Positions 22,951-44,177 are shown, counted from the first letter of the stretch. The stretch: DNA of 64,000 bases from Chlamydiales bacterium (GCA_024233435.1 JACKPQ010000001.1:260829-324828); one strand, 5' to 3'. Notes: generated by a model from the sequence alone, not told the origin. Numbers and translations are program-made.

Positions 22951-23059
22951 CATTTTGCAACCGAATGACTTTCCAGAGCTGGAAAATCATCCGGTCTTTC
23001 GTTACGAAGAGGGCATTTTAGCTGGTTTGCTCGCGGCTCAGTTAGGGCTTGTCCGATAA
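22868..23059 (+). CDS. Small hypothetical protein, 63 aa, overlapping the tadA 3' end out of frame
   Basis: The ORF MLEEMIEQQRAKLLKLGREIIPHLTSDDILQPNDFPELENHPVFRYEEGILAGLLAAQLGLVR has a protein-like, non-low-complexity composition. No motif recognised. Confidence 0.45.
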   Translation: MLEEMIEQQRAKLLKLGREIIPHLTSDDILQPNDFPELENHPVFRYEEGILAGLLAAQLGLVR

Positions 23060-24042
23060 AAAGTGGTTTTGATCATCGCGTGATCTGAGATGTCGTTGTA
23101 ATTGGCAAACTCACTCACTTTTTCTGTAACCATCTTATGAGAGCCTGGTAAGCTGACGATGTTGTCAACGGCTTCTGGATCTTCACCAATATCTTGCTGG
23201 GTGTAATCACTTGGGCATAATTGGCGCGGGCTTTTATCTCCAGCACGATAAAATCCATCTTGCAACGCAGGGTTATCGGGGTGAAGGATACTCATTTCAC
23301 CATTTACGAACGTGTCGTCTGGATTTGTGCGATCGACGTTGAGATCACCACCAAAGGCGTTGATTTCGGCCGGTTCGGTAGCGTTTAGCTCTTCGAGCTT
23401 AGCAATGATTTCGCGCGCTTGTAGGTCTCGAATTTGAGCAGATGTCAAAGTCGCGCCCTCTCGAGACACTTCCTGCTCTTTGGTGGCTTTTCCTGATTGC
23501 AGGTGCGTGTTGGCAATACGCATGATTAATTTATCGTTGTCATCGCGGATTGAGAGAATTCCAAAGCCCTTATAGACGTATTTTCTGTCTGCGCCTCCAT
23601 CGATTGTGAACGGATGCATTTCAAAAGAGGTGTTTTTATAGCGTGTAGCTACTAGAAGGCCTGATCCGAGCACTTTTTGACCACGGAGTGTGTGGGTGTA
23701 GAAGGTGGAAAATTGATCGTTCAGCCCGTTGATGATGGTCTCATCGATCTGGTTGCCCTCATCGTGAACTTCTTGAAGGAGAAGGATGTCGGGTTGCTCT
23801 CTCCTGATGGCATTAAAAATTTTACTAATACGGCTATCTGCGTCTTGGACAGGATCTAGGAAATGGGGGCGTTTTTCTCGATCTGTTTGCTGTTTAGGAA
23901 AGCCCAAGATGTTGAAGGATAAGATTTTTGTATTGTCTTCAATGACAATGCTTTGCGCGGATCCCTCATGTGTTTGAAACGGGGCCACTGACGCCAGGGA
24001 GATTATTAAACCTAATAAAGCATGCTTGAGAATTGTAAACAT
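23038..24042 (-). CDS. Exported endonuclease/exonuclease/phosphatase (EEP) family protein
   Basis: Signal peptide MFTILKHALLGLIISLASVAPFQ. EEP catalytic motifs SFNILG, LLLQEV, NTHLQSG, GGDLNVD and SDHAMI. Confidence 0.8.
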   Translation of the reverse strand: MFTILKHALLGLIISLASVAPFQTHEGSAQSIVIEDNTKILSFNILGFPKQQTDREKRPHFLDPVQDADSRISKIFNAIRREQPDILLLQEVHDEGNQIDETIINGLNDQFSTFYTHTLRGQKVLGSGLLVATRYKNTSFEMHPFTIDGGADRKYVYKGFGILSIRDDNDKLIMRIANTHLQSGKATKEQEVSREGATLTSAQIRDLQAREIIAKLEELNATEPAEINAFGGDLNVDRTNPDDTFVNGEMSILHPDNPALQDGFYRAGDKSPRQLCPSDYTQQDIGEDPEAVDNIVSLPGSHKMVTEKVSEFANYNDISDHAMIKTTFYRTSPN

Positions 24043-28670: not shown

Positions 28671-29354
28671 TTGGATATCGACATTTTGTCGCTTTTTCCT
28701 GAGTACTTTGAAAGCCCGCTCAGCGTAAGCATGCTCAAGCGGGCAAGAGAAAAGGGACTTGTAAACATTGCGTGTGTTAACATCCGCGATTTTGCAACCG
28801 ATAAGCACAAGACAGTCGATGATCGCCCGTATGGGGGAGGCCCTGGCATGCTTTTAAAAGCAGAGCCGGTGGTTAAAGCCATTCGGTCGAGGAGAAGAGA
28901 GGGCACCCATGTTGTCTATCTTTCTCCACAAGGCAAGGCGCTCAATGCAAACAAGTGCCAAGAGCTTGCTAAGTGCAAGCACTTAGTGTTGCTATGTGGC
29001 CATTATGAGGGCGTTGATGAAAGAGCGATTGCCGCTGAGGTTGACGAAGAGATTAGCATTGGCGACTATGTCCTGACAAGCGGGATGCCGGCAGCAAATG
29101 TGGTCATTGATGCTACTGTGAGGTTTATACCTGGAGTGCTTGGCCACGAAGAGTCGGCAAGGTGTGACACATTTGGCGAGGTGGGTTTTGACAGCCCCCA
29201 CTACACACGCCCTGAAGAATTTGAAGCTGTCAAAGTGCCCGAGGTGCTTCTCGGTGGCAACCACGCCCAAATTGAAGCGTGGAGAAAAGAGCAAGGATTA
29301 AACAAAATGTCGCAAGTGAGGCCGGACCTGCTTGCAAAGGAGAAACAAACATGA
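28671..29354 (+). CDS. trmD: tRNA (guanine37-N1)-methyltransferase
   Basis: [18 protein letters not shown] and [10 protein letters not shown] motifs. TTG start. Confidence 0.9.
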
Positions 29355-29788
29355 ATGCAATCGTAGAAGAGCTTGTTCTAGAGCAGCTCAGAAAGGACAT
29401 TCCCGAATTTGAAGTGGGTGATACAGTGCGTGTGCACGTGCGAATCATCGAAGGTGATAAAGAGCGTATTCAAGCCCTGACTGGGACTGTGATTGCGAAA
29501 AAAGGAAGAGGAATTTCTGAAACCTTTTCAATTTATCGAGTAGCCTATGGAATTTCCATGGAGCGTGTCTTTCCTCTTCATAGCCCACGTGTTGCGAAAA
29601 TTGAAGTTTTGCGCAAAGGTAAAACGCGTCGCTCTAAGCTTTACTTCCTCCGTGGAACGCAAGGTAAAAAAGCTCGCTTGCAAGAGCGCATCTTGATGAA
29701 AAAAGACGGTAAAGTTGCACCTGTCGTTGATGAAATTGAGGAAGAGATTCCTCCAGCATCTGAAAACGACAATCCTGTTGCAGAATAA
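29351..29788 (+). CDS. rplS: 50S ribosomal protein L19 with an acidic C-terminal extension
   Basis: [25 protein letters not shown]...FRV.. is the L19 core. ATGA overlap with trmD. The longer ORF-track start is rejected. Confidence 0.9.
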
Positions 29789-30386
29789 CTTCGAGCGAGA
29801 GCTAAATGATCGGGGATATCACCTGGTCGCAGGTGTTGACGAAGCTGGACGAGGGCCTTTAGCAGGCCCTGTTGTTGCAGCTGCGTGCATTTTGCCTCTC
29901 GACCTCAGAATAGAAGGTCTTAATGACAGCAAAAAGCTCACCCCAAAAACAAGGGCTGAGCTTTTTTTATTTCTTACCAGTCATCCAGCTATTCAATTTG
30001 GTATAGCCGAATGCTCTGCTCAAGAAATTGATGAGATCAACATTTTACAAGCCTCCCTCGAGGCGATGAAACGCGCTCTTTTGCAGCTCAGTCTAGTCCA
30101 TTACGCTCTTATTGACGGAAACAAGTGTCCCAACATCCATATCCCATGCCAAGCCATTATCAAAGGAGATAGCCTTTCTCCCTCAATTGCCGCAGCCTCG
30201 ATTTTGGCCAAAGAGACCCGCGATGCCCAAATGCTGAAATATCACGAGCAGTACCCCCAATATAACTTTGCTAAGCACAAAGGCTACCCAACCAAGGAAC
30301 ACATTGAGGCTCTTGCGCAGCATGGGCCAGCCCCAATTCATAGACGTTCTTTTGGTCCCGTCAATAAATTGACATCATCTCTATGA
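29778..30386 (+). CDS. rnhB: Ribonuclease HII (start uncertain: TTG 29778, ATG 29730 or 29715)
   Basis: [17 protein letters not shown] catalytic motif, plus DSKKLT and GYP..H. Confidence 0.85.
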
Positions 30387-31785: not shown

Positions 31786-32015
31786 AAAAACCAAAACTCA
31801 CAAACGAGATTTTGACAAAACTCTTTCGCAATAACTTTGAGCTTGCTCTGTATGCGATGGAAATTGCACGCCGCAACATCAAAGCTGGCAAAGAATTTAC
31901 ACTCGAGTCACTACTTACCGAGGTGCAAAATCACCCGCTGAAAGGTGATTTAGAAGAGCTTTTGGCTTCAAATAAACGAGCTGATGAAGCAAAGGCCGCT
32001 GAGGATGTTGCCTAA
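31782..32015 (+). CDS. rpoZ: Probable RNA polymerase omega subunit
   Basis: NNFELALYAMEIARRNIKAG resembles the omega motif NRFDLVLVAARRARQ. The gmk-rpoZ linkage is common. Confidence 0.55.
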   Translation: MKKPKLTNEILTKLFRNNFELALYAMEIARRNIKAGKEFTLESLLTEVQNHPLKGDLEELLASNKRADEAKAAEDVA

Positions 32016-33648
32016 GAGGGTTCTTATAACAGCCGCTTTGCCCTACGCAAACGGCCCGCTGCACTTTGGACACATTGCCGGTTGTTATCTGCCAGCGGAT
32101 GTGCATGCGCGCTTTCAGCGCATGCTGGGCGTGAAAACAGCCTTTATCAGTGGATCTGACGAGTATGGCGTCGCAATCACCTTAAGCGCTGAGCAAGAGG
32201 GGCGTAGTCCCCAAGAGCATGTCGATATCTATCACAAGATCAATCAAAAACTGTTCGAGCAATTGAACATTTCATTTGATCACTACTCTCGCACAACCAC
32301 ACCCATCCACACCAAAACAGCCCAAGAATTTTTCCTCACCCTCCATAAAAACGGCTACATTGAAGAAAAAGAAACCGAGCAACTTTTTTCCGAGGCTGAT
32401 AATCGCTTTTTAGCCGATCGCTATGTTATTGGGACTTGCCCAAGATGCAAATACCCTGAAGCCCGGGGTGATGAATGCACATCTTGTGGGGCTTCATACG
32501 AGGCTACAGATCTTATTGATCCTCGATCAAAAATCTCGAATGCACCACTCATCCTCAAAAAAACGACCCACTGGTTTATGCGCTTTGATAAATTTAAAGA
32601 TCAGCTACAAGAGTGGATTAAAGATAAGCCCTGGAAGAATAACGTTTTAAAATTCGCTCAGCACTACATTGATAACCTTCAGCCGCGCGCCATTACACGC
32701 GATTCAGAGTGGGGTATTCCTGTACCACTCGAACATGCAAAGGGCAAAGTCCTCTACGTGTGGTTTGATGCGCCCATCGGTTACATCTCCATGACCAAAG
32801 AATGGAGTCCTGAGCATTGGAAAGACTTTTGGCTTGATCTCGATACAAAACTGATCAACTTTGTTGGCAAAGACAACATCCCTTTTCACGCAATTTTCTT
32901 CCCAGCAATGCTCATGGGCACAAATGAGCTTTATAAACTCGTCGATGATCTTCCTGCTAATGAATTCTTGCAGCTCGAAGGACGTCAATTTAGCAAATCA
33001 GCAAACTGGACCATTGATCTTAACCGCTTTTTTCAAAACTTCACAGCCGATCAAATCCGCTATGTCCTTGCTGCAAATGCCCCCGAGTCTCAAGATAGTG
33101 AATTCACTTGGATTGACTTTAAGAATCGCTGTAACTCTGAGCTAGTTGGCAAACTAGGCAATTTTGCCAACCGCTCGCTGACATTTCTCAATCGCCAGCT
33201 CGAAGGCACAGCGCCAAAAGCCACCCTCTCACAAGAAGACGAGACCTTCCTATCCCAATGCCATGACCTGCTAAGCCAAATCAAAGATTCCTATACTCAC
33301 TATCATCTGCGCAAAGCCTCTCAGCTTCTCATGGAGCTTGCCCAAACCGGCAACGTCTATTTTGACCACAAGCAACCCTGGAAGGACAAACAAAGCGATG
33401 CCACCAAAGCAACCCTTTATTGCTGCCTGGAGTGTCTCAAATGTCTAGCGATCGCCGCCTATCCCATCATGCCTGTGGCAGCACAAGGCCTTTGGAAGCT
33501 TCTTGGATTTACATCTGAAATGACCATCTGGGATCAACCACCATTTCCCCCAGGCCAAAAACTCCCCGAGCCATCAGTCCTCTTCCAAAAAGTCGACGAC
33601 GACCTCATCGCCTCCGAAATCGAAAAATTACATTTATTTCTTAACTAA
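32005..33648 (+). CDS. metG: Methionyl-tRNA synthetase
   Basis: HIGH motif (PLHFGHIAG), KMSKS-like RQFSKS, and zinc knuckle CPRCKYPEARGDECTSCG. I prefer ATG 32005 over 31984. Confidence 0.95.
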   Translation: MLPKRVLITAALPYANGPLHFGHIAGCYLPADVHARFQRMLGVKTAFISGSDEYGVAITLSAEQEGRSPQEHVDIYHKINQKLFEQLNISFDHYSRTTTPIHTKTAQEFFLTLHKNGYIEEKETEQLFSEADNRFLADRYVIGTCPRCKYPEARGDECTSCGASYEATDLIDPRSKISNAPLILKKTTHWFMRFDKFKDQLQEWIKDKPWKNNVLKFAQHYIDNLQPRAITRDSEWGIPVPLEHAKGKVLYVWFDAPIGYISMTKEWSPEHWKDFWLDLDTKLINFVGKDNIPFHAIFFPAMLMGTNELYKLVDDLPANEFLQLEGRQFSKSANWTIDLNRFFQNFTADQIRYVLAANAPESQDSEFTWIDFKNRCNSELVGKLGNFANRSLTFLNRQLEGTAPKATLSQEDETFLSQCHDLLSQIKDSYTHYHLRKASQLLMELAQTGNVYFDHKQPWKDKQSDATKATLYCCLECLKCLAIAAYPIMPVAAQGLWKLLGFTSEMTIWDQPPFPPGQKLPEPSVLFQKVDDDLIASEIEKLHLFLN

Positions 33649-33689
33649 CTGTAAAACAATATGTTATCTAATGATGCTGAAGAGAGTTC

Positions 33690-33717
33690 TTGACATTAAA
33701 TATTAACCATGCATAAT
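33690..33717 (+). promoter_or_regulatory. Candidate sigma70 promoter of the second EEP gene
   Basis: TTGACA (33690-33695), a 16-nt spacer, then CATAAT (33712-33717). AAGGAG SD precedes ATG 33749. Confidence 0.45.
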
Positions 33718-33748
33718 TAAACTGTCTATAACCATAAAGGAGATCGCC

Positions 33749-34741
33749 ATGCCAATAAATTACAAAGTCGCAACATATAATACTGCATCAAATAGTGATT
33801 ATGCGCTCATACATGAGCAGAAGTATTCTAGAGATGCAAAATTGGGCCAAGTAGCATTTCGTGCTTTAGCAGATATGGGTATTGATTTCTTCTGCCTGCA
33901 AGAGGCTACCACATATGAAAAAGGCGATGTTTTTTTTGAAAAAAGCTCATGGATAAAAGATGATATACATTCCTCCCACACTAAAAGGTATGACTATATC
34001 CATAATACAAAGGGAATAGCTCTTGTATGGAATAATGAACAGTTTACCATAGTGGATAACTCAGTAAGGCGAAAGCAAGACTACCTTGTTGCTGATTTTT
34101 ATGATAAAACAAATCACAAAATCATACGCCTTGCTTCTATTCATATCAGCGGTTATTCGTTTAACGACCATCTTGGTAAGCAAAAATCTGAGAAAGAGTT
34201 TCAGGAGGATTTAGCAGACCAACACAAAACTGTTAGTCAGTTAATTCAAGACCTTAAATCAGATAACCGAGCAGATTTCACAATTATTGGCTCAGATACG
34301 AATTCAATTCCGGCTATTTATCCTGGACTACACCAAGCATTTGAATCGTCTGGGTATTCGTATGATAAAGAAAATTTTGAGCCAACAAATTATTTTGCTT
34401 TTTCGGCGTCTCCTAATAATAGTTGTTATAGAAGACTTGATTATATTTTTAACTCGTGGTTTCTGACTGCAAAACAATTAGATAGGCCTGATATAGGTTC
34501 ATTTAAGCTTAAGGACACCGAAAACCCAAGTGATCATATACCCGTTATTTATTCGATGACACAGAGTTTCATTTCGAGGTTGTTAAAGGTCCTTTGCGAT
34601 TTTTTTACTTGGAGGCCTTCAGTTGAAATTGAGCAATACAAAAGTTATAAAGATGAAACGCAGGGTTATAGCAGTATACTGGACCCCACAATGAGCTTTG
34701 TTGATGGACATGTGTCTAAAACTATAAAGATAAAGAGATAA
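33749..34741 (+). CDS. Endonuclease/exonuclease/phosphatase (EEP) family protein, AT-rich, effector-like
   Basis: EEP motifs VATYNTAS, FFCLQEAT, ASIHISG, GSDTNS and PSDHIPV. No signal peptide. The first 60 nt contain 20 G+C, against 30/60 in two core-gene samples I counted. Confidence 0.8.
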   Translation: MPINYKVATYNTASNSDYALIHEQKYSRDAKLGQVAFRALADMGIDFFCLQEATTYEKGDVFFEKSSWIKDDIHSSHTKRYDYIHNTKGIALVWNNEQFTIVDNSVRRKQDYLVADFYDKTNHKIIRLASIHISGYSFNDHLGKQKSEKEFQEDLADQHKTVSQLIQDLKSDNRADFTIIGSDTNSIPAIYPGLHQAFESSGYSYDKENFEPTNYFAFSASPNNSCYRRLDYIFNSWFLTAKQLDRPDIGSFKLKDTENPSDHIPVIYSMTQSFISRLLKVLCDFFTWRPSVEIEQYKSYKDETQGYSSILDPTMSFVDGHVSKTIKIKR

Positions 34742-34789
34742 GTATATTACTTTAGCTTTTTGAAGTTTGGCATAGGTCTTCTCTTATGC

Positions 34790-35013
34790 CAAAACTTTAC
34801 ATCTGACCTGATCCGCTATGCTCTCGCTACCAATGTGCCTGAATCCCCAGATAGCAGATTTATCTGGCTTTGAGTGCGTTGGCAAGCTGGGCAACGTCTA
34901 TTTTGACCACAAGCAGCCTAGGAAGAGGAAACACAAGCGATGCCACTAAAGCAACTCTCCATTCCTACGACGACCACATCGCCTCTGAAATCGAAGAGCT
35001 TCGAATCAATTAA
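34790..35013 (+). pseudogene. Decayed duplicate of the metG 3' end
   Basis: Three blocks align by hand to metG 33034-33117, 33139-33162 plus 33349-33425, and about 33597-33648, at roughly 80-90% identity. There are two internal deletions and in-frame stops. The copy ends in its own TAA at 35011-35013. Confidence 0.8.
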
Positions 35014-35239
35014 GCTATTCGTGACCGTCTGCTATAATGAAAGGCATGGGATTCCCACCAAAATTCACTCTTTCTAAGCCAATTTGAAACTCTTTAAAAT
35101 TGATGAGTATAAAGGACCAAACTGGGCGTCGTATGGCACTAACTTCTAACATCAATCGGACCGTGGGGGGCTGGAAACTTGTCTCAAGTTGTGAAGATAA
35201 GAGAATAAGACCGCTTAGGCTTTTTCAAACAGGCGTGTG

Positions 35240-36505
35240 TTAATGACTATAGCCGGTTGAGAGAAGGCGGCTACCATTGCAATCGAGGATCAGAAAGCGG
35301 TGAGCTTCTGTAGGCTGAGGCCATTGAAAACGCTCTAATTGTTTGTTGATGACTTCTTCTGCAATGGGGTGTTTTCTCGATTTGTTTCTCTTGCCTAGCT
35401 CGATTTTGTTTGGATGGAAGACAACAAGTGTGACTAGAGCATGATAATTTTCAGCTATGCGAATGATTTTTTCCCTCATCTCGCGTCGAAGATTTGTTGC
35501 ATCCCAGACGATTCGTTCTTTTTTACGCAGTTTTTCTTTTAGGCTCTCCATAGCGATGTTCAAAACTAGCGCGTTATTGCTTTGGTCTCCACGGTTTTTT
35601 GAGTGTAGCTCGCGTAGATCGTCTAGGGAAATTAAAGTGTGATCGGGAAGGGTTTGTTGAGCCCAAGTGCTTTTGCCTGATCCTCCTATTCCGCAGGTTA
35701 GAACTAACTCTGGATGGTGCTCTAAGTGCGGATATGCACGGGCAACAGCCTCATATGGAGTATGGATTAATCCATTTTCAAAGTCTTTAGCTCCATATCC
35801 TAATACATAGTCTATCAGCTCTGTAGAAGAGTTGGGCAACTCGTTTTTGATGGTGTCAGGCCATTCGCTATAAGGCCCTGCTTTTCCCCAAAGGCCATAC
35901 TCTTCAACATAGAGCCGGAACATATCGATATGCCCAACTTGCAGCTCTTTATCAATACATAAACGCCCGAGCATGTCAGCTTTTGTAAGGTAATACAGAA
36001 GTTCGAGGTCGGCTTGTCGAGCTAGCTTGTAGTACAAGGGCTTTCCAGCACCAGTAATGACTAGACGTTTTGGCACGATGTGGGCTGCTACAAGCTGCAG
36101 AATTTGATAGAGAACCCTATATGGGAGCCCACAATCTAGCAGGAGGGGCGCCAAATAAGAAGCTCCCATTTCCTCATGGTGTGGTGCCACAATACGCATC
36201 TGGCCATCTATTTCTTTTTCACGGGTTGTTAATGGTTTTGCGATATCATGAAAAGCTGTGGCCAGTATAAGAGCTAGCCGCCTCTGTGGCGTCAAAACAG
36301 CTTGTTCTTGGTTGAGAAGCTTGTAGAGTTCTTGAAGAACCCAGGAAGTGTGAACATAAACATCACCCTCAGCGTGCCAGTGAGGATCTTGAGATGTGTC
36401 TTTAAGCTTGCATAGCAAGGGGATAAAGGGAGAAAAGGTCTCTACAATTTCTTCTAAGGAAGGATTTTCACCATTGCTTATTCTATTTAATAAGATTTTA
36501 AGCAT
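35240..36505 (-). CDS. Bifunctional end-healing enzyme: N-terminal HD phosphoesterase plus C-terminal P-loop polynucleotide 5'-kinase (HD-Pnk architecture)
   Basis: HD domain signatures HWHAEGDVYVHT, FHDIAKP and HHEEMG. Kinase signatures GIGGSGKST, SLDDLR and WDATNLRREMR (T4 Pnk-like). ATGCTTAA overlap with the ligase gene. Confidence 0.8.
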   Translation of the reverse strand: MLKILLNRISNGENPSLEEIVETFSPFIPLLCKLKDTSQDPHWHAEGDVYVHTSWVLQELYKLLNQEQAVLTPQRRLALILATAFHDIAKPLTTREKEIDGQMRIVAPHHEEMGASYLAPLLLDCGLPYRVLYQILQLVAAHIVPKRLVITGAGKPLYYKLARQADLELLYYLTKADMLGRLCIDKELQVGHIDMFRLYVEEYGLWGKAGPYSEWPDTIKNELPNSSTELIDYVLGYGAKDFENGLIHTPYEAVARAYPHLEHHPELVLTCGIGGSGKSTWAQQTLPDHTLISLDDLRELHSKNRGDQSNNALVLNIAMESLKEKLRKKERIVWDATNLRREMREKIIRIAENYHALVTLVVFHPNKIELGKRNKSRKHPIAEEVINKQLERFQWPQPTEAHRFLILDCNGSRLLSTGYSH

Positions 36506-37145
36506 TTGGGTCCTTTAGCTTGTTAGGCACAATCTCCAACTCCATCCAGTGTTTGTTACTTTGTACATGGCCTTTTCGAACCCATTTAGCTACAGACTTA
36601 TGAAAATCACAATATGAAAATGCGTCTCGTATTCGCACAATGTATCCTTCGATCTCTTCGGTATTGAAATTCAAATTTCGAATTAGCTGCTCATTCCACA
36701 CCCCTTCAAAAAGAGTTCTTGGCGTCGGGATTCCTAAAAGCTGTGCCCATTCTAGGGTTTCATCCCAAGATAGGCAAATATTTTTCTCGTTCCAAACTGA
36801 AAATAAATAAAAGAACCCCTCCAAATTATCGTAGGCAATCGAATGTGTGGCATAAACGTTTTCACCACAGAGGCGCCAATTGTCTGGGATTTCTTGTTGA
36901 ATCCGGGCGTGGAGTTGTTTGGCTAGGCTTCTTGAAGGGTGATGCCCGCTGTCAATTGAGCGAGCATGCATTCCATCTGTGTAGAGGGTTGTATTTTCTC
37001 CATCGAGCTTTTCGGTAATGACAACTTGCTTATTTTTAAACTGATTTGTGTGAGTCATCTTGATGTCGTCATCGGTATTTCCAGGCGACCAGGGAAGATG
37101 GGGTGTTCGCGGGTATTTCCACCTCATATTGTGTTTGGGTTCCAT
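36498..37145 (-). CDS. ATP-dependent RNA/polynucleotide ligase, minimal nucleotidyltransferase domain (Rnl2-like superfamily)
   Basis: Covalent NTase motifs I EKLDGEN, III LCGENVYA, IIIa FYLFSVW, IV EGYIVR and V VAKWVRKGHV, with a KYPRTPHL N-terminus. I prefer start ATG 37145 (7 nt after the recD2 stop) over the ORF-track 37283. Confidence 0.8.
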   Translation of the reverse strand: MEPKHNMRWKYPRTPHLPWSPGNTDDDIKMTHTNQFKNKQVVITEKLDGENTTLYTDGMHARSIDSGHHPSRSLAKQLHARIQQEIPDNWRLCGENVYATHSIAYDNLEGFFYLFSVWNEKNICLSWDETLEWAQLLGIPTPRTLFEGVWNEQLIRNLNFNTEEIEGYIVRIRDAFSYCDFHKSVAKWVRKGHVQSNKHWMELEIVPNKLKDPNA

Positions 37146-37152
37146 ACCAACA

Positions 37153-39333
37153 TCACGCTGAATCAACAGAGGCGCTACAAGCAGACAGATCAAAAGAAAG
37201 CATAAGCTTGTCCATAAGACCTGTATGGCGCAAGAAGGCTTCGTTGTTTTTAATGGCAATGGCCAGGGCTTTTTTGGTGCCAATGAGAATCACGCGTTTT
37301 TTGCCACGGGTGATGCCGGTATAGAGCAAATTGCGGTAAAGAAGTTTGAAGTGGGAAGTATGCACTGGGATCACAACGCAGGGGCACTCGCTTCCTTGGT
37401 ACTTGTGAATTGAAACAGCGTAGGCTAAGACAAGCTCATCGAGCTCGGAAAAATCATAGGGGACTGTGAGCCCTTCAAAATCGACTTGGACCTCTTGATC
37501 AACCGTGTCAATTTTAACAATGCGTCCCACATCTCCATTGAAGACCTTTTTGTCATAGTTATTGCGGATTTGCATCACCTTATCCCCAAAATGAAAGCGG
37601 CGACCCATGCGCATAAGGGGGTTTTTGGAAGGGTTTAGCGTTGACTGAAGCACATGGTTGAGATTTTCTGTCCCAATAGGGCCTTTTTTCATAGGTGCAA
37701 GAACTTGAATATCATTAATAGCATCATAGCCATATTTTTCAGGAATACCTTTAGACACGAGGAAGTTGATTTTAGCTAAAATTTGCTCGGGCTCTTGTTC
37801 TTCGATAAAGGCAAAATCGCTTTTTTCTTCATATTCAAGATCAGGAAAGTAGCCTTTGTTGATGCTGTGGGCGCTGCGGATGATTTTTGAGCCTCGGGCT
37901 TGGCGAAAAATTTGAGTCAGACGTGTAACAGGGAGGACTTGTGACTCAATAATGTCTTTGAGAACCTTACCAGGGCCAACGCTTGGCAGCTGGTCAATGT
38001 CGCCAATAAGGATAACGCGCGCATTATCTGGGACAGCTTTTAGAAGGCTATACATCAACTGGGTGTCGATCATCGAAGCTTCGTCAATGATCAACAGGTC
38101 GCATGAAAGAGGATTTTCGCGGTTGCGTTTGAAGCCACCTTGTTGAAAATCAACCTCAAGAATGCTGTGAATGGTAAAGGCTTTACGACGGGTGATTTCG
38201 CTCATACGTTTAGCAGCGCGCCCTGTTGGAGCTGCAAGGATGACCTTGCTTGTAATTTTACTCAATATGGCAAGAATAGCTCGAGTGATCGTGCTCTTTC
38301 CTGTACCGGGGCCTCCAGTTAGAACATGCATCTTTTCACTGACGCTTTTTTTCACACCGTCGACCTGCTCGGGGGCTAAGTTAATGTAGAGTTTCTCCTG
38401 GACCCATTCGATGGCCTTTTCAATATCTAGATCACGGATAGAGCAGGGCTGGTCTGTTAAACGCTTGAGTTCGCGCACAATTCCAAGCTCTGCCATGAAA
38501 AGCGGCTTGATCCAAATTCGGCCTTGATCTTCAATAATGTGCTCATCTGTGACGAGTTTGGGCAAAGCATCTTCCACAAGCTTTGATTCAACTTCTAGCA
38601 TCTCGGTGACCCGCTCTAAAAGTTCATCTTTTGGAAAGCAGGTGTGGCCATCGCTACTGAGTTCCCAAAGCATATATTCAATGGCAGCCTCGATACGTAC
38701 AGGTGCATCTTTTGGAACGCCCAGTTTTTCGGCGATGCTATCTGCAGTTTTAAATCCCACGCCGTGAATTTCACGCGCTAGGCGATAGGGGTTATCTTGC
38801 ACCATATCGATGGCATCGTCGCTGTATTTACGATAAATTTTTTGCGCAAAAGAAGGGCTAATGCCATGGCCGCGCAAAAAGATAATCACATCGCGGATTG
38901 CTTTTTGCTCGCCCCAGCAATCTTGAATTTTTACAACGCGCTTTTCGCCAATGCCCTCAATTTCAAGGAGGCGGTAAGGAGTTTGGTCAATCACCTCCAA
39001 TGTTTTTACACCAAAGGCTTGCACGATTCTTTGGGCATAAACAGGCCCAATACCCTTCACCATTCCCGATTCAAGATATTTTTGAATTCCGATTACATCA
39101 GCTGGATAGTCGACCTCGTAGCTTGCAACTTCAAATTGCCTCCCAAAGGTAGGGTGGTGTTTCCATATGCCCTTTGCCCTTATCTTTTCGCCTGGGATGA
39201 TGCCTGGCATAGGGCCGACAACACAAGTGAGATCGGTGCATCGAGGCTGCTTTACGCGAGCTACGGTAAATCCTGTGTCCTCGCTAGAAAAAACAATTGA
39301 TTCAACAGAGCCAAAAAGATCATCCTGTTCCAT
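37153..39333 (-). CDS. recD: RecD2-type (RecD/YrrC-like) SF1B DNA helicase
   Basis: Walker A LTGGPGTGKST, LIIDEASMI and ILIGDIDQLPSVGPG. N-terminal HhH region and C-terminal SH3-like domain. First ATG at 39333 (the ORF opens at TTG 39357). Confidence 0.9.
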   Translation of the reverse strand: MEQDDLFGSVESIVFSSEDTGFTVARVKQPRCTDLTCVVGPMPGIIPGEKIRAKGIWKHHPTFGRQFEVASYEVDYPADVIGIQKYLESGMVKGIGPVYAQRIVQAFGVKTLEVIDQTPYRLLEIEGIGEKRVVKIQDCWGEQKAIRDVIIFLRGHGISPSFAQKIYRKYSDDAIDMVQDNPYRLAREIHGVGFKTADSIAEKLGVPKDAPVRIEAAIEYMLWELSSDGHTCFPKDELLERVTEMLEVESKLVEDALPKLVTDEHIIEDQGRIWIKPLFMAELGIVRELKRLTDQPCSIRDLDIEKAIEWVQEKLYINLAPEQVDGVKKSVSEKMHVLTGGPGTGKSTITRAILAILSKITSKVILAAPTGRAAKRMSEITRRKAFTIHSILEVDFQQGGFKRNRENPLSCDLLIIDEASMIDTQLMYSLLKAVPDNARVILIGDIDQLPSVGPGKVLKDIIESQVLPVTRLTQIFRQARGSKIIRSAHSINKGYFPDLEYEEKSDFAFIEEQEPEQILAKINFLVSKGIPEKYGYDAINDIQVLAPMKKGPIGTENLNHVLQSTLNPSKNPLMRMGRRFHFGDKVMQIRNNYDKKVFNGDVGRIVKIDTVDQEVQVDFEGLTVPYDFSELDELVLAYAVSIHKYQGSECPCVVIPVHTSHFKLLYRNLLYTGITRGKKRVILIGTKKALAIAIKNNEAFLRHTGLMDKLMLSFDLSACSASVDSA

Positions 39334-39402
39334 GGGCGTTACTGTACATGAGCGCAAAGCCTATTGCAATAAAAAGTGATTACTGGCAGAATAAATGAAT
39401 AT

Positions 39403-39475
39403 TCCGGATTAGCTCAGTTGGTAGAGCAACGGACTGTTAATCCGTTTGTCGCTGGTTCGAGTCCAGCATCCGGAG
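39403..39475 (+). tRNA. tRNA-Asn (anticodon GUU)
   Basis: Hand-folded cloverleaf: acceptor TCCGGAT/ATCCGGA, D arm GCTC/GAGC, anticodon arm ACGGA-CTGTTAA-TCCGT, T arm GCTGG-TTCGAGT-CCAGC, discriminator G. CCA is not encoded. Confidence 0.95.
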
Positions 39476-39480
39476 ACTTC

Positions 39481-39505
39481 AAGCCCCTCGCCCGAGGGGC
39501 TTTTT
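39481..39505 (+). terminator. Rho-independent terminator after tRNA-Asn
   Basis: aagcccctcg pairs with cgaggggctt and is followed by TTTTT. Confidence 0.75.
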
Positions 39506-39629
39506 ATAAAAATTTTATTATGAGTGCTTTGCTGTTTTTTAGCGTATCTTGACTTGTCAGCATAATTCTATAAATGAACAGATCGATCATCCAATAGCCG
39601 CACATAAAGAATGGTGCATGAACTTTTAG

Positions 39630-39821
39630 CTACTTTCTCTTTAACTTTGGATTTTCTGTTAACAAACCAAAATCGTCAATCTTATAGCTGTCATACAACT
39701 TACGATAATGGGCTCCATTAGGAACATCCTCCGAGGCCTGCCGAACAGACTTATTAGCAGCCTTTTTCTTCGGCTTCTTATTCTCTTCACGGAAATAGGG
39801 TTTTCGGTGCGACCTGCTCAT
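39630..39821 (-). CDS. Small, highly basic hypothetical protein, 63 aa
   Basis: The ORF is MSRSHRKPYFREENKKPKKKAANKSVRQASEDVPNGAHYRKLYDSYKIDDFGLLTENPKLKRK. A diverged paralog lies at 41197-41445. Confidence 0.5.
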   Translation of the reverse strand: MSRSHRKPYFREENKKPKKKAANKSVRQASEDVPNGAHYRKLYDSYKIDDFGLLTENPKLKRK

Positions 39822-40040
39822 TTAAACCTCTTTTTAAATTGCTATTTGTAGGGTCACAAAGCTTTGAAGGGTCTTTTTTTATTTTTAATTCAGACCTGTG
39901 ATGTTAATATAAAATGCTATGCAAATGAAGTGAGGAAGCCGTATTCTTGCAGAATGGGCATAAGAACGGTTGCAATCCATTCAGCAAATCACTTATGATC
40001 GTCCAAAACAACTTTAGAAGGCATGCTAAAAAAGAAGCAA
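39688..40040. repeat. Direct repeat copy 1 (small basic gene plus its upstream region)
   Basis: Aligns by hand with 41264-41495. The 99-bp core 39924-40022 matches 41377-41475 at 92/99. Copy 1 carries an extra 120 bp (39804-39923) that is absent from copy 2. Confidence 0.8.
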
Positions 40041-40143
40041 AGAGCTCAATCCAGGCAGTTGTCTTATTTAAACAAGAAGTAGAAGATGAATCAAATTTGC
40101 TGCCGTAGAAAATATATATTTTAGTTTTAACAGGAGTTTTTTT

Positions 40144-41091
40144 ATGATGAGCCTAGAAACACAGCAAGAAAGAGTCAGAATTACGGCCTACTTTCAAGGT
40201 GAGACAGAAAATCAGAAGTCTTCTCTAACACTTGGCCGTGTAATTCTCCAACTTCCAGATTCTAAAACCAGAATCACCCTTCTACTCCCAAAGGAATCCG
40301 TTCACGAGAGATCTGAACCTCTCAAATTTTGTGTGAAAAGAGAGGGGAATTGGAGGGAAGAACAACTTGAAGGGCTCCGACTCACCGTAGAAAAAGCAAA
40401 TCGCTTTGGTATGACCATTTATGTTTTCAAACATGGTGAAAATGTAGGCCCGATGATCCGACATCAAGATGGTACTACCTGCCAGCAACCGACAGTAAAA
40501 CGCTCTGAAAGTAAAGTGCAGGTTACGCGACCTGCGAAAATCGAACCGGGAGCTCATTATCGTTTGGAGATTACTTCCACAAACGGATCCAGTGCTGAAG
40601 CCAATCTAATAAAGATTGAAGGACCAATTCAAAAATCAAAAACTATGGGTGATGATTCAAAACTTTTCCGGAACGTGTATCCATCCATTATGGATTTACT
40701 CCGCCAGAAAGTTTTGGATGCTGAGAATCTCGTAAAGAAGTCCGTAGACTACGCCGATACTATTACCTTTAAATCAAGATTTAATGAAGAATTAGCAAAA
40801 CAATCTATCCTTACTGCAATAAACGGACTACACAGCGAAAAACGTGGTCAACTTGAGAAAATGTGCGAAACAGATAACTCAACACAAAATATTCCACTTG
40901 GCAGAAAGGCAGTCAGCCTTTTTCTTCTAGCCCTAGAAAGGACTGATATTGGACAGTTGCTGCAAGATCAGCTAGAGGCTGCGGTTGGTAAGGATTACCC
41001 TATTCTACTTGGAATTGTCTACAATGATATATTAGTACCTTTTATTGATGAAATCAAATTCATGGCTAGACAATATGACAACGAAATCTAA
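40144..41091 (+). CDS. Hypothetical protein, 315 aa, bracketed by the direct repeats
   Basis: Long ORF with AGGAG upstream. The N-terminal half looks beta-rich and the C-terminal half helical. No motif recognised. Confidence 0.6.
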   Translation: MMSLETQQERVRITAYFQGETENQKSSLTLGRVILQLPDSKTRITLLLPKESVHERSEPLKFCVKREGNWREEQLEGLRLTVEKANRFGMTIYVFKHGENVGPMIRHQDGTTCQQPTVKRSESKVQVTRPAKIEPGAHYRLEITSTNGSSAEANLIKIEGPIQKSKTMGDDSKLFRNVYPSIMDLLRQKVLDAENLVKKSVDYADTITFKSRFNEELAKQSILTAINGLHSEKRGQLEKMCETDNSTQNIPLGRKAVSLFLLALERTDIGQLLQDQLEAAVGKDYPILLGIVYNDILVPFIDEIKFMARQYDNEI

Positions 41092-41196
41092 AGGTTGCCC
41101 GCAAAGCAAACCTTATGATGATTTCTTTTGGGCTACTTTTTGTCCGGGCATGACACTAGGGTGAGGGGTTGTATAGATAGTCGAAACTTGTATGCA

Positions 41197-41445
41197 CTAT
41201 AGAGAGTAAAGGAAATAGCTGCTGCAATTTCCTTGGAGCTCCCAATTCTTTTCATGGGTATGGCTGTCATGCAACTTACGATAGTGGATGCCATCATGAA
41301 CATCCTCCGAGGCCTGCCGAACAGACTTATTAGCAGCTTTTCTTGATTTCTTGTTCTCTTCATGAAAGTAGGGCTTAATGAAGTGAGAAAGCCGTTTTCT
41401 TGCAGAATGGGCATAAGAACGGTTGCACCCCATTGAGCAAATCAC
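41197..41445 (-). pseudogene. Diverged or rearranged paralog of the small basic protein gene
   Basis: ...HFIKPYFHEENKKSRKAANKSVRQASEDVHDGIHYRKLHDS... matches the 39630-39821 product. The N-terminus is fused to upstream repeat sequence (GTG start) and the C-terminus is unrelated. Which copy is ancestral is unclear. Confidence 0.4.
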
Positions 41446-41495
41446 TTATGATCGCCCAAAGCAACTTTAGAAGGCGTGAAAATCAAGGAATCAAA
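41264..41495. repeat. Direct repeat copy 2
   Basis: See copy 1. The repeat runs into the first codons of the MazG-like ORF. Copy 1 retains only a 19-codon stub of that start (ATGCTAAAAAAGAAG... at 40023). Confidence 0.8.
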
Positions 41496-41496
41496 A

Positions 41497-41880
41497 ATGT
41501 GTAAATTTAGACCTTTTTTCTCGATGTTTGTTTGTCTAGTGGCCTTTTCGGTAAAAGTAGTAGGGGCAGAGAGCCACACGTATCAAGATCAACGGAAGCA
41601 GCTGGATTACGATGAAGAATATTTTGAAATCAACGAGGGATTTGAAAAGCTCCGTCATATTTTGCTGCATTTGATGAAATCAACTGGTAAGATAGCAGCT
41701 TATTGTGAGATAAAGGAGCATGGAAGAGAAGTCAGTGAAACCCAACTTCTTGATGAGGCGCTTCCAGATTTGTATATGCATGCTTTGCAGATTGCTAATT
41801 TGTTTGAGTTGGATCTAGGCGCCAAGTATGAAGAGCGAATTGCCAGTAACATTGCCCGCTTTGGAGGTGTGTCGAAATGA
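41497..41880 (+). CDS. MazG-like all-alpha NTP-pyrophosphohydrolase-fold protein with an N-terminal signal or anchor (weak call)
   Basis: LLHLMKSTGKIAAYCE...DEALPDLYMHALQIANLFELDLGAKYEERIASNIAR aligns by eye with MazG-like helices, but the EExxE metal motif is not conserved. Hydrophobic N-terminus MCKFRPFFSMFVCLVAFSVKVVGA. Confidence 0.4.
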   Translation: MCKFRPFFSMFVCLVAFSVKVVGAESHTYQDQRKQLDYDEEYFEINEGFEKLRHILLHLMKSTGKIAAYCEIKEHGREVSETQLLDEALPDLYMHALQIANLFELDLGAKYEERIASNIARFGGVSK

Positions 41881-41908
41881 GCTTAGTCCGTGATTTTAAG
41901 AAGGTTTT

Positions 41909-43309
41909 ATGAACATAGTTAAATCCAAGCGCTCGATCAGAATCTTTACCCTGACAATGATTAACATCGCTGCTACTTGCAGCATTCAGAATTGGCCTTT
42001 GACGGCCGAGTACGGCTTTTCTTCCCTATTTTTCTCTTTGCTCAGCGCTTTGGTTTTCTTTATTCCTGTCTCTTTGGTGTCTGCAGAGTTGGCTACAGGC
42101 TGGCCAGAGCGTGGAGGCGTTTTCACATGGGTCAAAGAAGCTATGGGCCACAGGATGGGGTTTTTAGCGGTTTGGCTTCAATGGGCAGAAAACGTTATCT
42201 GGTACCCGACTATTTTATCCTTTATCGGGGCTGCTATTGCTTATAGCTTTAATCCTGCACTAGCAAACAACAATGTCTATATGGGAATTGTGATTATCGC
42301 AGCTTTTTGGGGTGCTACGCTGATGAATTTATGCGGCATGAAAATATCGGGGCTTATTAGCTCTGTTGGTGTTATTGTTGGTACGATCATCCCAGGGGCG
42401 CTTATTATTTGCTTAGGACTCATATGGCTATTTGGAAGCCAACCCCTGCAAATCGAGCTGAGCTGGGATGCGCTTTTACCAGATTTAAGCTCTCCCTATC
42501 AGCTTTCTTTGCTAGTGGGAGTATTAACTGGTTTTACTGGGATGGAAATGTCCGCTGTGCATGCCCGTGATGTCATCAACCCCCAGAAAAATTATCCACG
42601 AGCGATTTTCCTATCAGCACTCATTGTTCTCTTTTTGTTTGTTTTAGGAACACTTTCTATTGCATTTGTTATTCCACAGAAGGAAATCAGCCTTGTTGGA
42701 GGGGCGCTGGAGGCGCTTTCCCATTTTATGCGTCGTTATGGACTTGGCTCATCGGTTCCCATTCTAGCTATTCTTGTTGCTTTTGGAGCGTTAGGCAGTA
42801 TGAGCACTTGGGCAGCGGGGCCAATTAAAGGGCTATTGGCAGCTGCGCAAAGCGGGGAATTCCCTCCGATTTTGCACCGTGTTAATAAAAATGACATGCC
42901 AGTAGCGATGATGATTATGCAAGGCGTCATCGTGTCTCTTTTGTCACTTGTTTTTGTCTTGATGCGCGATGTCAATATTTCATTTTGGATTCTTTTGGTT
43001 TTGATGTCGCAGCTGTATTTGATTATGTATGTGTTGATGTTTGTTGCAGCGATTATTTTGCGCTACAAAAGGGCGAATGTGCAACGGGCTTATACAATAC
43101 CTGGAGGGCGGCTTGGCATGTGGTTTGTCGCAGGTGTAGGGGCTTTAGGTTCACTAGCTGCGCTGATCATTAGCTTTTTTCCTCCACGTCAGATCAATAC
43201 AGGTAATGTTCTTTTCTATGAGCTATTTTTGCTGATTGGCATCGTGACGGTCTGCACGATACCGTTTGTGATTCTGCTCTTTAAGAAACCCAGTTGGGAC
43301 AAACCCTAG
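41909..43309 (+). CDS. gadC: APC-family glutamate:GABA antiporter-like permease
   Basis: 12 TM. Shares GGVFTWV, TIPGG and SFFPP segments and overall collinearity with E. coli GadC as I recall it. Lacks the ~35-aa C-terminal plug. Confidence 0.8.
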   Translation: MNIVKSKRSIRIFTLTMINIAATCSIQNWPLTAEYGFSSLFFSLLSALVFFIPVSLVSAELATGWPERGGVFTWVKEAMGHRMGFLAVWLQWAENVIWYPTILSFIGAAIAYSFNPALANNNVYMGIVIIAAFWGATLMNLCGMKISGLISSVGVIVGTIIPGALIICLGLIWLFGSQPLQIELSWDALLPDLSSPYQLSLLVGVLTGFTGMEMSAVHARDVINPQKNYPRAIFLSALIVLFLFVLGTLSIAFVIPQKEISLVGGALEALSHFMRRYGLGSSVPILAILVAFGALGSMSTWAAGPIKGLLAAAQSGEFPPILHRVNKNDMPVAMMIMQGVIVSLLSLVFVLMRDVNISFWILLVLMSQLYLIMYVLMFVAAIILRYKRANVQRAYTIPGGRLGMWFVAGVGALGSLAALIISFFPPRQINTGNVLFYELFLLIGIVTVCTIPFVILLFKKPSWDKP

Positions 43310-43547
43310 CGCGTGGCATTGGCTTTGAATATAGCTGTTTTATGTCATTTATAATTAGGCGTATATAGATTTATAACTCATAAATGAGCTATAACATGAG
43401 TTATATAAGAGAGGTTTATGCATCATGAATTGGAATTGGAAATTACCTAGTTAGCCAACTTTTTGCTATGGTCCATCCAAGGTTGCCGATTTAGAAAAGC
43501 AATTTCATATGGAAATTGGCACCACTTTTGCATATCTCAAAATCAGC

Positions 43548-44177
43548 TCAATCTAGAATGCTGACAGCTCCTGTGTGCATGTCGTAGTATCCTGCGTAGA
43601 CTTTGAGGCTGCCTTTTGATACAAGGTTTGCAATCGCCTTTGTTTTTAAGAGGGTATTTTTCATGTTGATGGCGTTTGTTTTAATGGCTGCTTCTAAAAG
43701 TGGGCGGGAGCGTTCTTTTTCGACTTTTTGCACGGCAGGCTCTATGAGTTTTGCAATTGTGGGGATGGTTTCTGTTGTATCTTTGATCACAGCATCTACT
43801 GCGCCGCAGTTTTCGTGTCCAAGGACAAGAATGATCGATGAGTGCAAGTGAAGAGCTGAGTAGTTAATGCTTTGTAGTTCAATAGGGCCTATCACATTGC
43901 CGGCAACGCGTACGACGAACAGATCGCCAATTCCTTGGTCAAAAATAATTTCTGGAGCAACGCGGGAGTCAGCGCAGCTGACGATAATGGCAAAGGGCTC
44001 TTGGCTAGCTGTGAGTGCTTGGCGGCTTTCAGCTGTTCGATTGGGATGCTCGAGAGAGTCTTGGACATAGCGTTTATTCCCTTCCATTAACTGCTCTAAT
44101 GGAGTCTGTGCGAATAATCCAAAACTAACTAATCCAATAAGAATTATCCTCATATTTTTTTTAATAATTATTTTCAT
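43548..44177 (-). CDS. Beta-class carbonic anhydrase with a signal peptide
   Basis: CADSRV and HENCGAV zinc-ligand motifs. N-terminus MKIIIKKNMRIILIGLVSFGLFAQ. ATG 44177 (the ORF opens at TTG 44189). Confidence 0.85.
   Translation of the reverse strand: MKIIIKKNMRIILIGLVSFGLFAQTPLEQLMEGNKRYVQDSLEHPNRTAESRQALTASQEPFAIIVSCADSRVAPEIIFDQGIGDLFVVRVAGNVIGPIELQSINYSALHLHSSIILVLGHENCGAVDAVIKDTTETIPTIAKLIEPAVQKVEKERSRPLLEAAIKTNAINMKNTLLKTKAIANLVSKGSLKVYAGYYDMHTGAVSILD

Follow-up and report, generated by a model that had tools for sequence, protein, structure and literature searches.

Chlamydiae live only inside host cells and have few mobile elements, and a 64-kb stretch of DNA from one of them raises the question of how single genes come to lie between two diverged copies of resident sequence with no recombinase gene close by. 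The stretch, here called the window, is metagenome-assembled sequence (MAG) from an uncultured environmental chlamydia, and positions count from its start. Locus 1 is a slot downstream from metG, the gene for methionyl-tRNA synthetase (MetRS), and holds a gene (cargo 1) for a protein with an endonuclease/exonuclease/phosphatase (EEP) fold. Locus 2 is a slot at a tRNA-Asn gene and holds a gene (cargo 2) for a protein of 315 amino acids. An earlier note on this DNA had proposed that each cargo was gained when circular DNA carrying it and a homologous fragment integrated by a single crossover (Campbell-type integration).

We think that both loci are strain-variable slots in which host homologous recombination on diverged anchor copies swaps single-gene cassettes, and that the repeats are scars of the junctions; we put the probability of this reading at about 60%. 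Host recombination on such anchors would add, swap, and remove single-gene cassettes without an integrase. That both cargos are bracketed by diverged direct repeats was confirmed, and the similarities are far beyond chance (E of 1e-19 at locus 1, and of 1e-34 and 4e-40 at locus 2). A domain search of every gene in the window found no integrase or transposase, in agreement with what had been proposed. The window contains no third copy of either repeat.

Several relatives served for comparison. Three Logan assemblies (L008, L009, and L010) are independent of the MAG; their contigs break at the locus 2 repeats. The siblings at locus 1 are L011 and L023, which carry a third EEP allele, and L025, a contig that ends four bases into the metG tail. 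Identity of L011 and L023 to the window is 98-100% in metG and 98.9% in the stretch with the genes for the HD-kinase, RNA ligase, and RecD2. At locus 2, the siblings with one repeat copy are three contigs, L033 and L034 (one sibling strain) and L035. By metG, the closest relatives all come from chlamydial MAGs; L004, a relative, has an 88% identical MetRS, L036 is an outgroup, and L018 and L022 are distant relatives with cargo 2 homologues. P0014-16 are homologues, in related lineages, of a small open reading frame (ORF) at locus 2; P0014 is on a 13-kb JGI contig (3300056388) and was read from the gene table only.

The crossover at the tRNA-Asn locus

The states of locus 2 with one and with two copies of the repeated module differ by a single crossover, through which a 1,576-bp unit, made up of cargo 2 and one module copy, would have been either integrated in the Campbell manner or looped out. 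This conclusion is well supported by alignment of the window with the siblings. L033, L034, and L035 each have a single module and do not have the 315-amino-acid gene, and L033/L034 are 99% identical to the window over 41259-44084. The crossover interval is a 40-nt core, the longest identical run between the two module copies; recombination between DNAs of about 88% identity is expected at the longest identical run. Left of the core, the sibling module was the same as copy 1 at 7/7 two-state informative sites, with one further site that has three states, and the left flank of the sibling continues as the copy 1 flank. Right of the core, the sibling was the same as copy 2 at 17/18 sites and at two indels, of 3 nt and 120 nt, and its right flank continues as the copy 2 flank. 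The exact probability of this split (7:0 on the left versus 1:17 on the right) is 1.7e-5. In its right half, copy 2 shows 99% identity with the single module of L033, and the left sequence of copy 2 was found in no one-copy strain. The sibling is a reciprocal chimera of both copies, and a single reciprocal crossover in the core therefore converts one state into the other. Empty sites in relatives, the comparison that the earlier note had named as a check, were thus exact reciprocal recombinants of the occupied site. We infer that the recombination would have been of the RecA type rather than the work of a site-specific enzyme.

The two copies of the module described in the earlier note are both present, but they are not the same in structure, as copy 1 is split by a 120-nt segment relative to copy 2. 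Copy 1 and copy 2 align in two blocks with 85% and 92% identity. Each copy would supply a promoter-like element, D1, to the gene on its right. A promoter scan found the D1 site, facing the gene on the right, in copy 1 only; the hexamers of D1 in copy 2 (TTGCAC/TATGAT) were read by eye. Copy 2 is directly upstream of a 127-amino-acid ORF (41497-41880) and a permease gene. An independent assembly, L010, joins D1 of copy 1, cargo 2, and the unique left part of copy 2 as far as the core.

The direction of the change, gain in the window versus loss in the siblings, has roughly even odds, and gene gain as originally proposed did not hold up as the only account, since pop-out loss in the siblings gives the same pattern. 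Two findings favour loss in the siblings. The 63-amino-acid form of the small ORF, which has its ATG in the 120-nt segment and a KPKKK motif, is also present in the outgroup L036 and in P0014-16. This ancestral form is that of copy 1, and the one-copy strains have the derived form that is missing the 120-nt and 3-nt segments. Second, the cargo 2 homologues in L018 and L022 are beside groESL-DUF748, as in the window, and are 59-62% identical to cargo 2, versus 48-55% for the neighbouring housekeeping genes. Cargo 2 is at least as conserved as its neighbours and is found in the same neighbourhood in these distant relatives, and therefore it looks like an old resident. Both the ancestral ORF form and the neighbourhood of cargo 2 speak for a two-copy state of long standing, from which the siblings would have lost the unit by pop-out. 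In support of gain, 3/4 of the sampled haplotypes have one copy, and both indels are in frame. Additionally, two polarisable D1 sites (of four informative sites in total) group the window with L033 to the exclusion of L035, ((window, L033), L035), with weak support; this tree implies one gain versus two losses. L036 fixes the ancestral form of the small ORF and is without cargo 2 and its right-hand neighbours; there is no distant outgroup for the small ORF, a family that is confined to this species group.

The 315-amino-acid protein is not the orphan that it was first taken for. It has five clusters of homologues in other chlamydiae, with 56-62% identity. There was no Pfam match to the protein and no fold match in the PDB at E<=0.001, and we rejected it on that basis as a hidden recombinase. 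We also rejected a plasmid or phage source for the module, the cargos, and the small ORF; there was no match in PLSDB at the level of DNA or protein, and none in IMG/VR.

Several other observations were made around locus 2. The left flank of the module differs among three near-identical strains (window 39506-39682, L033 546-866, and L035 380-929). To the left of the module are the tRNA-Asn gene in the window, the 3' end of a gene read as GNAT-like from sequence alone in L033 and L034, and an apparently truncated amidohydrolase-type gene (read by eye) that is fused in frame to the small ORF in L035. These differing flanks mark a second variable junction at 39572 or 39652. In two distant relatives (L036 587-10189 and JGI 3300056388), a small ORF of 63-77 amino acids directly follows an AbiEi/AbiEii toxin-antitoxin pair, and an insertion sequence (IS; DDE_Tnp_1) and a 1,840-amino-acid RHS-repeat protein with DUF687 are near the small ORF in L036. 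We considered D1 as a 3' remnant of the AbiEii toxin gene and rejected this, as there was no protein or DNA similarity. Four independent contigs with the closest homologue of cargo 2 (L018 10952-11013, L019, L020, and L021) end no more than about 60 nt past the stop codon, a hint that this site, too, is a repeat or a junction that varies among strains.

Occupants of the metG slot

In the window, one unit occurs twice in tandem, in diverged versions; it is made up of a metG 3' end, an EEP gene, and a short spacer. The upstream unit is intact: its metG is the resident allele, ending in a new tail of 5 codons, and the EEP gene and the spacer follow. The downstream unit has an older metG 3' end with its native stop codon, a Fic-domain gene, an older EEP gene, and a spacer, and at least four deletions have reduced it to 426 bp. 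The metG remnant in the downstream unit (34783-35016) matches the 3' end of metG in pieces with 74%, 84%, and 93% identity, the best with an E value of 1e-19. About 370 of its approximately 600 nt have been lost by internal deletions, with a GGCAA microhomology at one of them, and the longest identical run in the repeat pair is 26 nt. The end of the upstream unit (34713-34765) aligns with 35180-35230 and with the end of the EEP gene and spacer of L023 (p<0.002), and the final 39 nt of the older EEP remnant are identical to the end of the EEP gene in the siblings L011 and L023. When the metG remnant was extended to the left, as far as the stop codon of the EEP gene, the alignment was no better than shuffled sequence (p 0.5-0.7); this stretch is instead a continuation of the homology of the EEP 3' end and spacer. 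The 1,154-bp insert contains no second gene. The whole locus was recovered at 100% identity in two independent Logan assemblies (L008 and L009).

Comparison with L004 indicated that the decayed copy of metG is the ancestral one and is contiguous with ancestral downstream sequence. In L004, metG is followed by an intact gene of 303 amino acids that was read as Fic-domain from its HPFxDGNGR motif only. The metG stop codon, intergenic DNA, and Fic start of L004 are collinear with the remnant in the window and its downstream flank (81% over 136 nt), and the DNA downstream from metG in L004 is not collinear with the end of the intact metG in the window. Because the remnant and the sequence downstream match the native surroundings of metG in L004, the decayed copy is taken to be the older. 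The four known metG ends diverge right after EIEKL and read HLFLN in the window, KIT in L023, RSD in L004, and RIN in the remnant, each followed by a stop. The older EEP remnant follows the Fic remnant; cargo 1 therefore replaced an earlier arrangement of Fic and EEP genes and was not a new gain. Judged from these remnants, the event at locus 1 is displacement of an allele, and of the Fic gene with it, rather than gain of a new function, contrary to the original proposal of gene gain.

The 3' end of the intact metG is the resident allele. Over the aligned columns it has 7/219 differences from L025, 16/233 from L023, and 46/233 from L004. We considered a foreign 3' half in the intact metG and rejected it, as identity to L004 is flat along the gene and the siblings match the segment at 93-99% identity; this latter identity identifies it as resident. 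Simple local tandem duplication had been named in the earlier note as an alternative, and a recent one is excluded at locus 1, where the intact copy has these 7-16 differences from the siblings and the decayed copy is as distant from the resident allele (57/233) as from that of another species (54/233).

The remnant is a mosaic of two ages. Over 233 columns, it has 57 differences from the window, 55 from L023, and 54 from L004, that is, it is equidistant from the resident allele and that of another species, and therefore it is not a recent copy of the resident allele. Changes specific to the remnant are spread across all three codon positions, the pattern of neutral decay. In its left segment (the equivalent of 33027-33120), the remnant has 9 synonymous states in common with L004 versus 1 with the window copy, and in the middle and right segments it has 3 in common with L004 versus 13 with the window (Fisher p=0.0008).

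Whole haplotypes of the slot also differ between siblings. The slot in L011 and L023 has a different EEP allele (313 amino acids, 50% amino acid identity), a homologous spacer promoter, and no remnants. Window and siblings abruptly cease to match at about 33627, and the match resumes at exactly 35170; metG is 98-100% identical to that of L023 and L025 up to the first of these points, and the same junction between metG and its tail is present in L025 as in the window. These sharp breakpoints indicate that whole slot haplotypes pass between strains through ordinary double crossovers in the conserved flanks. In our model, DNA from a related strain, with a metG 3' fragment and a different EEP allele, would have integrated by recombination anchored in metG; the previous occupants would have been displaced downstream and then decayed, and later gene conversion or a second event would have made the remnant a mosaic. 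Separately, slot haplotypes are swapped between near-identical strains by double crossover at 33627 and 35170.

Cargo 1 is, by its modelled fold and catalytic motifs, a divergent member of the EEP superfamily. The 330-amino-acid protein had no Pfam match even at E<=10, including to the PF03372 model. An AlphaFold2 (AF2) model had a predicted TM-score (pTM) of 0.71 and matched EEP-family structures in the PDB by Foldseek with an E value of 7e-11; the top matches were the EEP structures 3mpr, nocturnin, and TDP2 (E of 7e-11 to 1e-8, probability 1.0). Because the PF03372 model misses a protein that the fold supports, we regard it as divergent. There are only three clusters of homologues, all chlamydial, with 39-50% identity, and the catalytic motifs D183, N185, and S261-D262-H263 are invariant across the four-member family. 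Other EEP homologues adjoin ileS. The GC content of cargo 1 is 35.6%, versus 44-46% in its flanks. Cargo 1 is predicted by a promoter scan to have its own promoter; the 100-nt spacer between metG and cargo 1 has a promoter-like site, TTGACA-16-CATAAT, at 33690-33717 (11/12 match).

We made several observations on metG and its surroundings. The metG in the window is a short form that ends in EIEKL-HLFLN and is without the C-terminal tRNA-binding domain. In L036, metG encodes 680 amino acids (L036 15800-17842) with a C-terminal tRNA_bind domain (PF01588), and the metG genes of the window, L023, and L004 stop just past the anticodon-binding domain, with 3-5 variable codons. The hypervariable slot starts exactly at the site of the missing domain (window 33620-33648). 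A pair of genes for an HD/AAA_33 kinase and an RNA ligase (35240-37283, minus strand) lies between the EEP slot and recD2 and looks like an RNA-repair cassette. In L036 (15800-15860), metG abuts recD2 with nothing between them, and the maximal ORFs overlap; because the pair is absent there, it is itself accessory. Between the window and L023, there are patches with 85-95% identity at 29000-29100, 29750-29900, 30050-30150, and 33150-33450, and the remainder is 98-100% identical. These patches make up a mosaic of the kind that frequent homologous recombination within a species typically leaves.

Competing explanations

The two loci support recombination on diverged anchor copies to different degrees. 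Campbell-type integration by a single crossover, as first proposed, has the expected topology at both loci and, at locus 2, the reciprocal chimera; at locus 1 the footprint is plausible but not uniquely supported. Several points weigh against our reading. In a pure reciprocal chimera, the two halves of the repeat should be equally diverged, and at locus 1 an old left half is joined to a young right half; these unequal halves require at least one extra event, either later gene conversion or a second event. The topology of locus 1 is explained equally well by another mechanism, described below. At locus 2, linkage across the 40-nt core comes from the MAG assembly alone. A recombinase may be encoded outside the 64-kb window. 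Finally, the first origin of the two-copy state is inferred and not observed.

That other mechanism is homology-facilitated illegitimate recombination (HFIR), in which linear DNA from a relative is anchored by homology on one side and joined illegitimately on the other, such that recipient sequence is duplicated and old genes are displaced. HFIR gives the gene order found at locus 1 (metG with a new tail, new EEP gene, old metG 3' end, Fic), and the left edge of the remnant at 34782/34783, which has no recognisable homology partner, could be the illegitimate join. For comparable arrays of displaced genes, HFIR has been put forward as the mechanism (PMC5361080). Since the 3' end of the intact metG belongs to the species' own allele, an HFIR crossover could only have fallen at the extreme end of metG. 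At locus 2, all of copy 2 should be resident under HFIR. Its right part matches the resident sequence at 99% identity, but the left part differs at 8 of about 39 sites; the left part is non-resident, and HFIR is therefore rejected at locus 2 as a recent event. Overall, we consider HFIR an unlikely explanation of the two loci.

A bolder form of our own explanation is quite improbable. In it, environmental chlamydiae would have a cassette system that is addressed by homology and needs no integrase. Small circles, each with an effector-like gene and a copy of a chromosomal anchor or promoter module, would loop out, pass between co-infecting strains by natural DNA uptake, and re-insert by a single crossover. 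If so, the promoter-bearing anchors would act like integron attachment sites without an integrase.

Site-specific recombination of tiny mobilisable cassettes, with an integrase supplied in trans and the identical core as the att site, is very unlikely. The 40-nt identical core with diverged arms, next to a tRNA gene, is what such a process might leave, and in outgroups the small ORF is beside AbiEi/AbiEii and an IS element, a mobile-element context. Against this, neither the 64 kb nor the cargos contain an integrase, a transposase, or a recombinase-like fold, and the homology extends about 39 nt to one side of the core and about 180 nt to the other, as expected of homologous partners. An identical run of 40 nt is not unusual here. 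In simulations, runs of >=47 nt in 220 nt at about 88% identity had p of 0.05-0.12, and a 40-nt run would be commoner. The 3' 28-mer of tRNA-Asn occurs once in the window even with 3 mismatches allowed, so there is no att repeat derived from the tRNA; of the two marks of an integrase islet, an adjacent recombinase and a tRNA 3'-end repeat, locus 2 has neither. The repeat at locus 1 is unrelated, and its longest identical run is 26 nt.

Also very doubtful, and a shade more so, is a duplication of resident DNA in situ and in tandem that later diverged and suffered deletions without any contribution of foreign or allelic DNA. It would account for the two tandem versions of one unit at locus 1 and for the decay-like changes specific to the remnant. 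It does not account for the left part of the remnant, where 9 synonymous states are shared with another species versus 1 with the resident allele, or for EEP versions and tails that are highly diverged in strains that differ by about 1%. Duplication would also require clean removal of Fic from the upstream unit and, at locus 2, an extra precise deletion to place the cargo between the copies.

An assembly artefact in which two strain haplotypes were stitched in tandem is suggested by the MAG source, the several haplotypes of both loci that coexist in public samples, and the breaks in Logan contigs at the locus 2 repeats, but it is hardly credible given that L008 and L009 contain locus 1 from end to end at 100% identity and that L010 links D1 of copy 1, cargo 2, and the left part of copy 2, the last of which is absent from one-copy strains.

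Setting and relation to known systems

The features of both loci are in Table 1. The exact cargo proteins are in NCBI under locus tags H7A40_01375 to 01385, named 'MAG: Chlamydiales bacterium'.

Table 1. Positions of features at the metG and tRNA-Asn loci, counted from the start of the window.
Feature	Position	Strand	Remarks
metG (methionyl-tRNA synthetase), intact	31984-33648	+	Pfam tRNA-synt_1g, E 1e-147
Locus 1 repeat copy 1, metG 3' segment of ~600 bp	33027-33628	+	Resident species allele
Start of hypervariable segment: new 5-codon metG tail, stop, spacer	33629-33748	+	Sharp drop in identity to L023 at ~33627
Cargo 1, EEP-fold protein, 330 amino acids	33749-34741	+	GC 35.6%
End of upstream unit: ~24 nt homologous to the spacer after the old EEP gene, then ~17 nt of junction	34742-34782	+	
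Locus 1 repeat copy 2, decayed metG 3' remnant with internal deletions	34783-35013	+	Stop 35011-35013; tail EIEEL-RIN, then stop
Ancestral DNA downstream from metG and first ~20 codons of Fic-domain gene, truncated	35014-35105	+	ATG 35046
3' end remnant of older EEP allele	35097-35208	+	Fused to Fic remnant at microhomology AAAATTGAT
HD/AAA_33 kinase gene, conserved right flank of variable slot	35240-36505	-	99.8% amino acid identity to L011
tRNA-Asn (GTT), then terminator hairpin	39402-39477	+	Not itself duplicated
Small basic ORF of copy 1, 63 amino acids	39630-39821	-	ATG inside 120-nt segment; ancestral gene form
Locus 2 module copy 1	39683-40025	+	Small-ORF part 39683-39803, 120-nt segment 39804-39923, D1 39924-40025
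Identical core common to both module copies, 40 nt	39722-39761 = 41298-41337	+	Inferred crossover interval
Cargo 2 segment	40026-41258	+	315-amino-acid gene 40144-41091, conserved 48-nt leader, 167-nt tail; GC 40%
Locus 2 module copy 2, contiguous, 220 bp	41259-41478	+	Without 120-nt and 3-nt segments; truncated on left

Elsewhere in the window, the only other repeat found is a tandem unit of about 600 nt (16463-17653, 75-85% identity, three register-shifted blocks) within a 675-amino-acid ORF (15981-18008, minus strand) that has no Pfam match; it looks like internal repetition and does not bracket a cargo. The general mode of effector acquisition that the earlier note suggested for this lineage is a conjecture at the scale of one window. 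Effector-like or eukaryote-like genes encode a Ser/Thr protein kinase, a tyrosine phosphatase, and a PLD-like protein (18071-19480, minus strand; 45659-46663; and 61831-62349). A second, canonical Exo_endo_phos (PF03372) gene is at about 23040-24040 (placed from L023 1257-2261), about 10 kb upstream of cargo 1.

Insertion-duplication mutagenesis is Campbell-type single-crossover integration of circular DNA, and the loci resemble it in several respects. Direct repeats of the homology segment bracket the insert, the target gene is intact, the process would be reversible by looping-out, no dedicated recombinase is encoded in the 64 kb, and comparison with the one-copy state shows both locus 2 repeats to be reciprocal chimeras. 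In Chlamydia suis, a circular vector with only one homology arm can integrate whole and, apparently, loop out again, and arms of 0.5 kb gave no integration (PMC10715202). The events described here differ from such experiments in that they are natural, the homology is short (~220-600 bp) and diverged (~75-92%), and a circle is only postulated. Chlamydia takes up DNA in a ComEC-dependent manner and undergoes lateral transfer (PMC6686042).

Locus 1 also resembles loci of type VI secretion systems (T6SS), Rhs proteins, and contact-dependent inhibition (CDI), where a new module enters after a conserved anchor, earlier occupants are pushed downstream, and HFIR was proposed (Kirchberger et al. 2017, PMC5361080). 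Such sequential displacement covers Rhs C-terminal regions, CDI orphan modules, and T6SS effector-immunity arrays (also Jackson et al. 2009), and HFIR was described by de Vries and Wackernagel 2002, Prudhomme et al. 2002, and Meier and Wackernagel 2003 (all as cited in PMC5361080). In common with those systems, locus 1 has a conserved upstream anchor, a variable module directly after it, and anchor-bearing remnants downstream, and related strains carry different modules that are exchanged by plain homologous recombination. It differs from them in that a housekeeping gene, metG, provides the anchor with its 3' end, where those systems use the constant part of a toxin gene; the variable module, in place of a toxin-immunity pair, is one separate EEP-fold gene under its own predicted promoter; and the displaced genes are decaying, whereas in those systems they are retained. 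HFIR resembles the process proposed here in that foreign DNA would be acquired through a single homologous anchor without enzymes of mobile elements; it differs at locus 2, where both junctions are homologous and reciprocal, and at locus 1 HFIR is indistinguishable from Campbell-type integration. We conclude that the loci are a new natural example of known processes of recombination and displacement and reveal no new mechanism.

How chlamydiae renew the genes for interaction with their hosts is an open practical question, and the two loci give a natural record of it at base level, a well-resolved example in a phylum where such evidence is scarce. They complement the laboratory finding of whole-vector integration and looping-out in Chlamydia suis. 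With short, diverged homology (~220-600 bp, 75-92%), the host recombination system appears able to exchange, introduce, or remove single genes among strains of otherwise about 99% identity, and earlier occupants persist as remnants that can be dated. The results suggest that strain-variable effector slots may be sought at the 3' ends of housekeeping genes and at promoter modules.

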